This document shows positions 15,938 to 26,171 of a stretch of 64,000 bases of DNA, piece after piece; the stretch's first letter is position 1, and each line of letters starts with the position of its first letter. The position numbers and the translations under genes were made by a program. Origin of the DNA: Blastocladiella emersonii ATCC 22665 (lineage: Eukaryota; Fungi; Blastocladiomycota); assembly GCA_025594325.1 (NCBI GenBank), contig JANHCV010000015.1, forward strand, positions 682,001 through 746,000, written 5' to 3'. The notes beneath the pieces were generated by a model. The model did no database searches and was not told the DNA's origin. It saw only the letters and a program-made list of their open reading frames with translations.

Positions 15938-16078
15938 GGTCCATGGCTTACGGCGAGCTGTTCAAAAGTGGTAGGGGCCCTGGTTGGGTCCACAATGCCG
16001 TAGTGTGTCCCGTTGCTACGTCATGCCAAGTGCGTTGAATGCGCTTGTCAATTTAAACTTTGTTGGACTACTGTAACT

Positions 16079-16231
16079 ATGCGAGGCTGTATCAAAGAGA
16101 TCGTCCCCCTGCCCAAGCCGCCATGCGATCACTATGATGCTCCCAGCTGGGTCCATGACAATGAGCTGCTGTGGGTCCAAGTCGTGTACCCATGCTGTGG
16201 GCACAAGTACACATACCGGCGGGTAGTCTGA
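16079..16231 (+). CDS. Putative 50-aa Cys/His-containing viral micro-protein
   Basis: The ATG is preceded by TTGTTG-N8-TAACT (16060-16078), a near match to the viral upstream motif. Sequence MRGCIKEIVPLPKPPCDH...PCCGHKY. Confidence 0.4.
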   Translation: MRGCIKEIVPLPKPPCDHYDAPSWVHDNELLWVQVVYPCCGHKYTYRRVV

Positions 16232-16491
16232 GAGCGACCAGTAAAGGCTTCAAGGTAGCTAACCAAGTTAACTTGAAGGATCTATTCAAAGCAGACAGTG
16301 TACACAACCTTGACACCTGGCAGGGCCACGTTGCGGATGGCTGTGTAGTTGGCTGTTGTCTGGGGGCCCGGACGGCCAGTCCAAGGGATGCTCGTGGAAG
16401 GTGCGCGGGGCGTTGATGCAGTAGAGCCAGTATTCATTGTCCTGTGTCTTACTATGCCTTCGCAGAAAGAATTTAAAGCACATGTCGTTGC

Positions 16492-16593
16492 TTACTCTAT
16501 GGCGCGGAATACTTTGCTTGTGTACCCAACAATGGCCAGGTTGGCTACAAGGATCAGGGCGTTGGTGGCAACAAGGAGCGTCTCGAGGATCAT
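16492..16593 (-). CDS. Putative 33-aa single-pass membrane micro-protein
   Basis: MILETLLVATNALILVANLAIVGYTSKVFRAIE. It has a perfect TTGTTG-N8-TAAAC-ATG upstream and lies 31 nt after the penton stop. It is too short for the supplied ORF track. Confidence 0.6.
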   Translation of the reverse strand: MILETLLVATNALILVANLAIVGYTSKVFRAIE

Positions 16594-16624
16594 GTTTACA
16601 GTAGAACAACAATTAAAGTCAACG

Positions 16625-23789: not shown

Positions 23790-24898
23790 AGCCCGCGGTC
23801 CCACTTTTCTTGGACTTGGACTGGGATGCGCCTGACCCGGGTCGAGGGCTCCCTTGGCGTGACTGGGGTGCGCGCAACAGGGAGCCTTGGAAGACCTGGA
23901 CCTACGCGCTGCCTTGTTGGCGGGTCCTGGGTCGCTGTGACTGGCTGGACGTCGCTGCGTGGATAGAAGCCCTTGAGGCCTTGGACCTTGTAGCTTGGAT
24001 TGCTCACGCCCGACCCCTTGCGCACGACCTGGACCTGGCTCACAGTTGTCGACCAGACCGGCTTCCCCTTGGCCTCCATGGCAGTCTTGTACGGCTCGCG
24101 GACTCGGACCTGGGTCCCTACCTTCAACAACGCGCTCAGAGGGTCGCCCTCGGGCTTGCCCTTGGCAGCTCGGATTGCCTTGAGCTCTTGCTTGGCCGTT
24201 TCGCGGGGCATGTCATGGAACGCGTTGGGTGCCTTGCTTGTGGCCCTCGACTTGCTGCTGTTGATCACAGATTCAATGGTCTCGAGGTGCTTGGGCCAGT
24301 CGTTGTTGCCCGGGATGGACAGCCACGGTGTGAGCATCCAGCGGATGGTCCTGTTCATACGCTCAACGACACCTTGACCGTATGGCACTCCTGCCTTACC
24401 CTTGATGTGCTTGGCCTCGGTCCCGGCCTCTATGCCAAAGAACTCGGTCCCATTGTCCGTCTGGATCGTGGCAGGTGCAAGGCTGTGCTTGGCAACCACG
24501 CTGGACCATGCTTCCCGCGTCTTGTCCTTGGTCTTGATGGGTTGGAGGTAGACGCGGCGGCTCGCCAGGTCAACACACGTGAGAATGTAATGGAAGCCCT
24601 TGTACGTACCGTTTTCGCCCATGTCAATGAGGTCGAGCTGAAAGTTGCGGCCAGGACTTGTTGAGTTGATGCTTCGAATGTCTCGGCGCTTCTGAGGTGC
24701 GCGTTTGTACTGCTGCCACACAGACTGTTCACCGAGCCATCTCTCAAGCTGGGCGCGGTAGATGTGCTTCCCTGTGTGCTCTTGGTCGACAATGTCAAAG
24801 AGACGTCGGATCCCAACCCCAACATGGCCGCGTTTGTAGTACAAGTCTTTCAGGTACTCGGTCTGTTCAGCAGTCAAAGGTTCTTCGTGTGGATACAT
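23786..24898 (-). CDS. Retroviral-type (rve) DDE integrase of polinton class, 370 aa
   Basis: FQLDLIDM (D), YILTCVDLASR, IQTDNGTEF (D), GVVERMNRTI (E, 31 residues after the second D), then a KVGTQVRV...W SH3-like tail. Its stop overlaps the fibre stop. Confidence 0.93.
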   Translation of the reverse strand: MYPHEEPLTAEQTEYLKDLYYKRGHVGVGIRRLFDIVDQEHTGKHIYRAQLERWLGEQSVWQQYKRAPQKRRDIRSINSTSPGRNFQLDLIDMGENGTYKGFHYILTCVDLASRRVYLQPIKTKDKTREAWSSVVAKHSLAPATIQTDNGTEFFGIEAGTEAKHIKGKAGVPYGQGVVERMNRTIRWMLTPWLSIPGNNDWPKHLETIESVINSSKSRATSKAPNAFHDMPRETAKQELKAIRAAKGKPEGDPLSALLKVGTQVRVREPYKTAMEAKGKPVWSTTVSQVQVVRKGSGVSNPSYKVQGLKGFYPRSDVQPVTATQDPPTRQRVGPGLPRLPVARTPVTPREPSTRVRRIPVQVQEKWDRGL

Positions 24899-24919
24899 TT
24901 ACAACAAAGACAACAAAAG

Positions 24920-26089
24920 TTACTCGGGCTTCACACGGTTGGTGTAGTACTTCTCGGACACCTTGGACGTGTGACCCATCTCATGGCAACGCTGCTCACG
25001 CTCCAGCCATGGCACATCGGCACCCTCGGTTGCGACAACACGTTGGACCTTCTGCACGCCGCACTTCTTGTCCATGAGATCCAAAATCGTGCAGTCAATG
25101 GACTTGTTCCAGGTGTTGTGGAGACGCTTGTTGACCTCCTTGCTGGCCAGGTCCTCAATGGTGCAGTTGATGAACACAAAGTCATGGCCCTCTGCCTTGC
25201 GCTTGGCAATGACACACTCCAGGGCGGCTGCCACCTTGGGGTTGGGGATGACGTGTGAGAACTTGTGGCCACGACCCTCGGTCTTGACACAGATTGGACC
25301 TGCCACAGTCTTGGTCTCCGGGTCGTAGTGCGGGTACTTGTTGTTGGGACTTGTGGTCAGGTACGCCATGTTGCTGCGCGTGGCAGTCATGACCTGGAGG
25401 TACACTTGGAGATTGGTCATGGGCCCCTTGCCCTGGAGCGTCGCCCAGTTCTCAGCAGCAACAACAGCAGCCAGGAGGTCGTCACTGCTTGGGAGCGTCC
25501 CTGCCTCTTCAGCATTGCGCTTCTCACGGGCAGTATCAGCGTCCTGCTTCTTGGCCTCCGTGCACTTGGCCCCGAGTTTGGTCCACCCGTTCCAGGTGCA
25601 GTACTTGGCCAGGGCCTTGAGCGTCTCGACCTGCAGTCCCTGGACGTTCTTGGACCCCTTGGTCGCGCGGTAGGTGGCCACGGCCTTGGACACGGCCTCG
25701 ACGTCCTGGATGTCCAGACCTGAGGCGGCAAAGGCAAGGAGCACACAAGCCGTCTTGGCCTTGTCATCGGCGTCCAGCTCGGCCGGCTCCCCGTTCTTGT
25801 TCACCACGGGCGCGTCGACACACGCAGTAATGGACTCTTTGGTCAGCTCAGCAAACTTGACTTGGGGCGGCTCCGGGGTGTCGACTTCCACGGGAGTGAC
25901 TTGCTGATCAGCGCCGTGATCTGGGTCGTGTGACTCGATGGCCTTGAGTCGCGCGTCCAAGTCCTTGAAGCGCTTGTCGATTGACCCAAACACGGGCTGG
26001 AGCTTGTCCATGACTTGCTGCACCACGTCTGCGGCAACATGCTGAGCAAGGGCAACGGCGACCTGGGAGGCAAGAGACTCGAGCGACAT
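24920..26089 (-). CDS. Tyrosine-recombinase superfamily protein (integrase or telomere-resolvase-like), 389 aa
   Basis: Candidate catalytic set in the correct order: R (TATRSN), K (VKTEG), KxxR (QKVQR), H (MGHT) and Y (EKYY, 8-9 residues after H). Confidence 0.7.
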   Translation of the reverse strand: MSLESLASQVAVALAQHVAADVVQQVMDKLQPVFGSIDKRFKDLDARLKAIESHDPDHGADQQVTPVEVDTPEPPQVKFAELTKESITACVDAPVVNKNGEPAELDADDKAKTACVLLAFAASGLDIQDVEAVSKAVATYRATKGSKNVQGLQVETLKALAKYCTWNGWTKLGAKCTEAKKQDADTAREKRNAEEAGTLPSSDDLLAAVVAAENWATLQGKGPMTNLQVYLQVMTATRSNMAYLTTSPNNKYPHYDPETKTVAGPICVKTEGRGHKFSHVIPNPKVAAALECVIAKRKAEGHDFVFINCTIEDLASKEVNKRLHNTWNKSIDCTILDLMDKKCGVQKVQRVVATEGADVPWLEREQRCHEMGHTSKVSEKYYTNRVKPE

Positions 26090-26171
26090 GGTTTACTGAC
26101 TGTCAACAAAAAGGCTCCATGGGCTCAAGTGCGTTTGAACGCAACGTTCTTTTTTCTGGGTAGCTGGGCCT

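Follow-up and report, generated by a model that had tools for sequence, protein, structure and literature searches.

The genes of a polinton-like virus (PLV) integrated in the genome of the fungus Blastocladiella emersonii ATCC 22665 are preceded by a bipartite motif, in which a TT(G/C)TTG hexamer is separated by eight free bases (N8) from the sequence TAA(A). The virus lies in a window of 64,000 nucleotides (contig JANHCV010000015.1, positions 682,001 to 746,000), and all coordinates given below are those of this window. The motif is real, it occurs well above chance, and it is tied to gene starts rather than to gene ends. By its distribution it can be called element-wide, being exact at 9 of the 12 starts and present as a variant at up to three more. 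We think it somewhat more probable than the opposite, with a rough probability of 0.55, that the motif is an element-wide promoter, likely read with the late-phase factors of a co-infecting large DNA virus. The sites are the following, each with the open reading frame (ORF) that it precedes and the ORF length in amino acids (aa).

16060–16077, plus strand: TTGTTG-N8-TAAC variant (TAACT), one letter off, before the 50-aa ORF (16079–16231)
16595–16612, minus strand: exact motif before the 33-aa ORF (16492–16593)
17368–17385, minus strand: exact motif ending in TAAATG, before the 247-aa putative penton (16625–17368)
17661–17678, minus strand: exact motif before the 88-aa ORF (17387–17653)
18924–18941, minus strand: exact motif before the major capsid protein (17696–18916)
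19754–19771, minus strand: exact motif ending in TAAATG, before the A32 packaging ATPase (18957–19754)
21501–21518, minus strand: weak variant TTTGGT-N8-TAAC before the 571-codon ORF (19781–21496); 5.3 bits, p = 0.053
21827–21856, both strands: two overlapping, opposed motifs around GTTTAAAC, serving the divergent 83-aa ORF (21574–21825, minus) and fibre-like ORF (21846–23789, plus)
21839–21856, minus strand: exact motif of the 83-aa ORF, its hexamer lying within fibre codons 2–4
21827–21844, plus strand: CTGTTG motif, a one-letter variant, before the fibre-like ORF
24898–24916, minus strand: variant with a 9-nt spacer, ending in TAAATG, before the rve integrase (23786–24898); 13.4 bits, p = 0.0025
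26092–26109, minus strand: exact motif before the 389-aa ORF (24920–26089), a putative recombinase
26643–26660, plus strand: degenerate TCTGTG-N8-TAAC before the second ATG (26670) of the TVpol-like/SF3 helicase gene

The eight sites that the initial annotation had quoted with an 8-nt spacer are all present in the sequence as written, and its variants at the 50-aa ORF and, with a 9-nt spacer, at the integrase were found as well. The gaps in the capsid cassette, given there as 18–42 nt, measure 31, 18, 42, 40 and 26 nt. Two of its statements have to be qualified. The variant at the 571-aa ORF exists but is weak, and the absence of the motif before the TVpol-helicase gene holds for the strict pattern only, as the degenerate site has the same spacing and reaches 8.6 bits (p = 0.0125 compared to local shuffles), which is also what the 50-aa site obtains in a leave-one-out test. 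We thus regard the integrase site as a clear variant, the TVpol-helicase site as a plausible one and the 571-aa site as weak. The last two (21508, minus, for the 571-aa ORF; 26653, plus, for the TVpol-helicase) share ACAGTAAC, which is found nowhere else in the element and possibly marks a second promoter class.

Each site consists of a T/A-rich run followed by TT(G/C)TTG, eight free bases and TAA(A)(C/T). The two blocks carry 1.2–2 bits, compared to at most 0.65 bits in the spacer. The flank is T-rich, the spacer is fixed at 8 nt, TAAA is present in 8 of the 9 exact sites, and 3 of 10 sites end in TAAATG. The distances from TAA to ATG are 3, 3, 5, 5, 5, 6, 11, 11 and 17 nt. A spacer that stays constant while the distance to the ATG varies is as expected of a DNA element with a set geometry.

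The pattern TTSTTG-N8-TAAA (S is G or C) has 7 matches in the window, all on the minus strand, while 100 dinucleotide shuffles gave 0.05 on average and never more than 2. Since this pattern was chosen after the data had been seen, the discovery was redone blind, with gapped 3+3 words of any sequence and any gap in the 40 nt upstream of the 12 starts. The most shared word was TTG-N8-TAA, at 9 of the 12 starts, and the best word in shuffled sequences never exceeded 6 of 12 (300 mononucleotide and 300 dinucleotide shuffles). For the eight long ORFs alone, GTTG-N8-TAAA was found at five, with a null maximum of three in 500 shuffles, and the enrichment is therefore independent of the small ORFs. 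The relaxed word TTG-N8-TAA has 12 matches inside the element, nine of them at starts; the other three (15215, 15714 and 29265) lie in repeated sequence of the terminal inverted repeats (TIRs), away from any known start. Outside the element there are 5 relaxed matches in 48 kb of the window, and none of the 30 flanking ORFs of at least 150 aa in the window has the motif upstream.

These numbers also make it extremely improbable that the motif reflects chance or composition, that is, short AT-rich intergenic gaps or the local copying of one spacer sequence. The regions upstream of the starts are indeed 60% AT in an element of 58–60% GC, and the penton and integrase sites hardly differ, the spacer included. 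However, the composition-preserving shuffles described above do not reproduce the counts, the other spacers are unrelated, and in a leave-one-out test 6 of the 9 sites have no better-scoring non-site position anywhere in the window.

We now turn to the possibility that the motif acts at the level of RNA, as a cleavage, termination or trans-splicing signal of a long transcript or as a translation-start signal. Five of the nine exact sites lie in the 18–42 nt gaps behind an upstream stop codon, and U/G-rich tracts of this kind are generally known to resemble 3′-end elements. In addition, the public gene models of 8 of the 15 listed cluster members have a 117-nt GT-AG intron that links the 88-aa ORF to the penton, and the predicted intron (17337–17453) has a CTGAC branch-like site and would remove the penton motif. 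This intron is likely a prediction artefact, and it is modelled at one junction only. Four starts (those of the 50-aa, 83-aa, fibre and 389-aa ORFs) carry the motif with no gene on their strand ending shortly before them, and it is missing from the 60 nt behind five gene ends that have no start after them; both points speak against a terminator. Splicing at nearby AGs, which the initial annotation had given as an example of what would speak against a promoter, does not fit the sites. In 4 of 10 there is no AG at all from the hexamer to the ATG, which disfavours a splice acceptor, and behind the TAA an AG is found in only one of the 10. The variable TAA–ATG distance argues against a start-codon context. 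An RNA-level signal is thus quite unlikely in our view, and the terminator-only and splice-acceptor versions, like chance, were tested and disfavoured.

The fixed spacer, the variable ATG distance and the linkage to starts together fit a late promoter made of a core and an initiator better than they fit a terminator or a splice signal. The late promoters of vaccinia consist of a T-containing core, about 5–7 bp and then TAAAT (PMC5294985), and its intermediate promoters of a core, a 12-bp spacer of critical length and TAAA read by the viral polymerase (PMC12917281). Like these post-replicative promoters, the motif has two blocks, a constrained spacer and a TAAA that often overlaps the ATG, so that a TAAA initiator, an upstream AT/T-rich core and set spacing are all found here. 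Unlike in vaccinia, there is a defined hexamer with 8 bp, and there is no link to a poxvirus host. The analogy and the sequence support a start-linked, promoter-like element with the late architecture of giant viruses and poxviruses.

In the mechanism that we propose, the T-rich core ending in TT(G/C)TTG, the 8-bp spacer and the TAA(A) initiator would together form the promoter, transcripts would start at TAA(A), and each gene would get its own mRNA with a short leader. The late-phase factors would be supplied by the co-infecting large DNA virus. The polymerase could be viral, or it could be host RNA polymerase II (Pol II) guided by viral factors of the TFIIB/VLTF type. It is important to point out that "late" here refers to the late phase of the helper and not to a late gene class, because the exact motif is found before the putative recombinase, and variants of it before the integrase and the TVpol-helicase.

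As to the helper, the Mycodnaviridae infect zoosporic fungi including Blastocladiomycota and encode VLTF3 and TFIIB, and five isolates carry a polinton-like integrase (PMC13533422). In the available main text of that paper the words "promoter", "RNA polymerase" and "emersonii" do not occur. As VLTF3 and TFIIB are named and an RNA polymerase is not, host Pol II with helper factors is just as possible as a viral polymerase. A catalogue paper discusses gene trees of the order of the Mycodnaviridae for 6 of 7 markers, the polymerase subunit being the one left aside (PMC13524828), an omission that is suggestive only.

Viral contigs were scanned with the motif alone, which gave 92 matches (80 of the 92 are listed), and in a second scan at least 120, of which 80 have full flanks. 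The motif is joined to a giant-virus capsid start at 10 loci, 8 of them from one lineage with T5GTTG-N8-TAAACC-ATG, which carries its own RNA polymerase gene. This lineage was considered as the helper and rejected, as its 154-kb record has 4 matches against 2 for the control. Among the matches listed, a second giant-virus lineage also has the motif at its capsid start, so that two different capsid-gene lineages start with it, and other giant-virus starts were matched too. The 80 full-flank loci with T5GTTG-N8-TAAATG, which came from a blind scan and were classed by hand from markers, fall into 57 lineages. Among these listed matches and without a spacer control, the match opens an ORF of at least 60 aa in 8 of 13 eukaryotic-virus lineages compared to 5 of 44 others (p = 6e-4); with four doubtful ORFs dropped, the numbers are 6 of 13 and 3 of 44 (p = 0.003). 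This enrichment would fit a general late-type layout in giant viruses. Another option considered was a two-way arrangement of the motif, which gave 31 loci; the six that were inspected look like phages, and the motif is clustered in none of them.

A number of results weigh against a promoter read with the factors of a helper virus. In the viral contigs scanned, genome-wide use of the motif was not seen in any virus, and in no locus do two or more strict matches lie at called ORF starts (0 of 91, and 0 of 120 among the matches listed). In a 238-kb giant-virus bin the motif is not enriched, with 11 matches compared to 13 for the control. The scans have thus given isolated matches at giant-virus starts and no genome-wide enrichment in the two large records counted. 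Of the suggestion in the initial annotation of a late promoter read by a helper polymerase, the start-linked, promoter-like layout stands, while a virus using the motif throughout its genome was not found in these contigs. The enrichment at giant-virus starts depends on classes assigned by hand and may reflect a generic T-tract followed by TAAATG. The distant relatives of the capsid protein (one locus, 26%) and a relative of the integrase lack the motif. The upstream hexamer is conserved in sequence, unlike the poxvirus core, which for the vaccinia intermediate promoters has no consensus (PMC12917281), and it could be bound by a host factor or by one encoded in the element, where six ORFs are unassigned. 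Finally, the promoter shared by Sputnik accounts for its expression only in part (PMC11998528).

Several of these points would suit a helper-independent promoter, in which host Pol II with a host factor or an element-encoded activator reads TT(G/C)TTG and the virus is autonomous. The conserved hexamer resembles a sequence-specific binding site, unannotated Cys/His-rich (50-aa) and basic (83-aa) products are present, no helper came out of the viral-contig scans, and a giant virus is not needed for the replication of some PLVs (PMC10945749). However, the element has neither TATA[AT]A nor AAAATTGA, although TATATAA is found in the terminal repeats of the retroelement around it, and the motif is missing from the flanking ORFs. 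The leaders of 0–14 nt after the TAA are, as a matter of general knowledge, very short for host transcripts. Searches of Pfam and PHROG also detected no DNA-binding domain among the element products. The statement in the initial annotation that the element encodes no transcription factor amounts to an absence of database matches, with six products (33, 50, 83, 88, 389 and 571 aa) having no significant Pfam or PHROG match. We consider a helper-independent promoter somewhat unlikely.

No related locus came out of the viral contigs when they were searched directly with the ATPase, the capsid protein or a capsid relative, and a metagenome scan gave two loci, one of them with a 26% capsid relative and neither with the motif. 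In a 33-kb viral contig with an SF3 helicase (L162:966-989; L152), a gene start close to each end carries the motif, which thus likely lies within terminal repeats; many other genes of this contig have a T-tract and then TAA before the ATG. Fungal cytoplasmic linear virus-like plasmids, which are reported to encode their own RNA polymerase (PMC6211774, PMC13348850), are another possible source of transcription factors.

The element itself is bounded as follows.

14372–30108, no strand assigned: integrated polinton-like virus, 15,737 bp, with ends TG...CA
14372–15425, plus strand: left TIR, 1054 nt, 100% complementary to the right arm
29055–30108, minus strand: right TIR, 1054 nt, the perfect partner of the left arm

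It is flanked by an imperfect 5-bp repeat (ACGAA/ACGAC). Its size of 15.7 kb, its TIRs and its integrase agree with what is expected of PLVs (14–40 kb, TIRs, an integrase or recombinase), as do its double-jelly-roll major capsid protein and A32 packaging ATPase. For capsid and ATPase proteins nearly identical to those of the element, the sources give the name Blastocladiella emersonii; one cluster holds 15 ATPase sequences, and further clusters lie at 82–92%. From these relatives the element can be assigned as a multicopy PLV of a blastocladian fungus. In this copy two genes have in-frame stops, a TGA at codon 76 of the 571-aa frame and one at codon 87 of the TVpol-helicase frame (26928–26930), in a gene that runs to 28976.

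A number of side observations were made on the structure. A 26-nt near-perfect palindrome at each end (14372–14397 and 30083–30108; hairpin z-score −7.1) is possibly a replication or integration signal. There is a duplication of about 500 nt within the left end (15084–15941) and an array of 11–12-nt tandem repeats between the 389-aa and TVpol genes (26367–26505). One copy of the 10-mer CAAGTGCGTT lies at each outer edge of the gene block that carries the motif (16027 and 26126), both on the same strand, and the first copy forms a hairpin (z-score −2.5). No Rfam match was obtained. The virus is nested inside a DIRS-like retroelement (12700–33694 of the window), with a gag-like ORF (12978–14153) and a reverse transcriptase ORF (30314–32395) on the two sides, inverted repeats at 12700–12945 and 33394–33639, and an internal complementary region at 33230–33313. 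In Cafeteria, nesting has been reported between the same kinds of element.

Among the products, the 406-aa major capsid protein has a structure model with pLDDT 79.7 and a double jelly roll, which matches the PBCV-1 capsid proteins at E = 1e-17 and also those of Sputnik and mavirus; its Atlas neighbours agree with this identity. The ATPase matches Pox_A32 (E = 1.6e-11), the fibre-like ORF Phage_Tail_Tip (E = 3e-9) and the SF3-type helicase gene DUF5906 (E = 4e-19), for which the additional label TVpol is our assumption and does not come from a database match. The rve-type integrase gives a weak match (E = 4e-6, below the Pfam cut-off), and its homologs carry PF00665. The 389-aa ORF, with no database match, we take to be a tyrosine recombinase from the likeness of its motifs, and the 247-aa putative penton, with no Pfam or PHROG match, is labelled by its size and its position next to the capsid gene. 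The codon usage of the 33-, 83- and 88-aa ORFs is element-like (0 of 1000 shuffles as good), and for the 50-aa ORF p = 0.034, so that its coding status is weak. The 33-aa product is hydrophobic, and the 83-aa protein has no Atlas match. The N-terminal stretch of the 88-aa product looks amphipathic, and its start presumably recalls adenovirus protein VI.

Classical virophages (Lavidaviridae/Maveriviricetes) are marked by a virophage-type capsid family and a maturation cysteine protease. No protease or virophage-specific Pfam match was found among the element ORFs, six of which are unannotated, and by these searches the element does not fall among the classical virophages. A close parallel for the motif is mavirus, in which all genes are preceded by the CroV late promoter (PMC6723459). 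Like mavirus and EMALE type 4, the present element is integrated, bounded by TIRs, capsid-encoding and equipped with an rve integrase, and has one motif before essentially all genes (PMC6723459, PMC8547959, PMC10945749). Unlike mavirus, it has a fungal host and a TVpol-like/SF3 replication gene, its helper and promoter function are inferred, and TCTA[AT] is not found at its starts, the CroV motif being TCTA in AT-rich flanks. PgVV-14T (Gezel-14T), which has an early AAAATTGA motif at five genes, a promoter common with its helper, and single-gene transcripts, is likewise a PLV with a TVpol-helicase, recombinase, A32 and fibre (10.1101/2022.07.28.501842); the present element differs from it in lacking AAAATTGA. 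Promoters of the TAAAT type in entomopoxvirus-associated PLVs were not backed, as "promoter" does not appear in the accessible text of PMC11296320.

That virophages and PLVs have shared upstream motifs, from which the helper can be deduced, is established (PMC8547959, PMC10945749, 10.1101/2022.07.28.501842, 10.1101/2025.10.09.676808, 10.64898/2026.07.28.741278), and the pacmanvirus transpoviron has such a motif as well (PMC11788076). One motif upstream of most genes, as found here, agrees with these helper-shared promoters. PLVs of chytrids are known in general (10.64898/2026.06.19.733378), and a large 2023 survey left fungi out (PMC10120064). Our literature search, with most subscription journals outside its scope, found no report of this motif or of a polinton in Blastocladiella. 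Judged on sequence, the motif and the host would thus be new, and the shared-promoter pattern of virophages, by which we assign the probable function, is known.

Shared promoters match endogenous virophages to giant viruses, and only the matched types are reactivated (PMC10945749). It is a tentative and rather doubtful proposition that this multicopy family is a fungal virophage and that a giant virus of zoosporic fungi uses the motif as its late promoter. In that case, the motif would be a ready probe for naming the helper and its late genes. Should the helper have no RNA polymerase of its own, which the silence of the Mycodnaviridae papers would permit, we would be dealing with a nuclear virophage that takes over host Pol II by means of the late factors of the helper, a mode outside that of the virophages of cytoplasmic factories. 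As the motif is unusually sharp, the element multicopy and the fungus culturable, the question of the helper could be answered by a single scan. Finding TTG-N8-TAA before the late genes of the Mycodnaviridae or another fungal DNA virus would give the first virophage–giant virus pair in fungi, and it would also define the late promoter of that virus.

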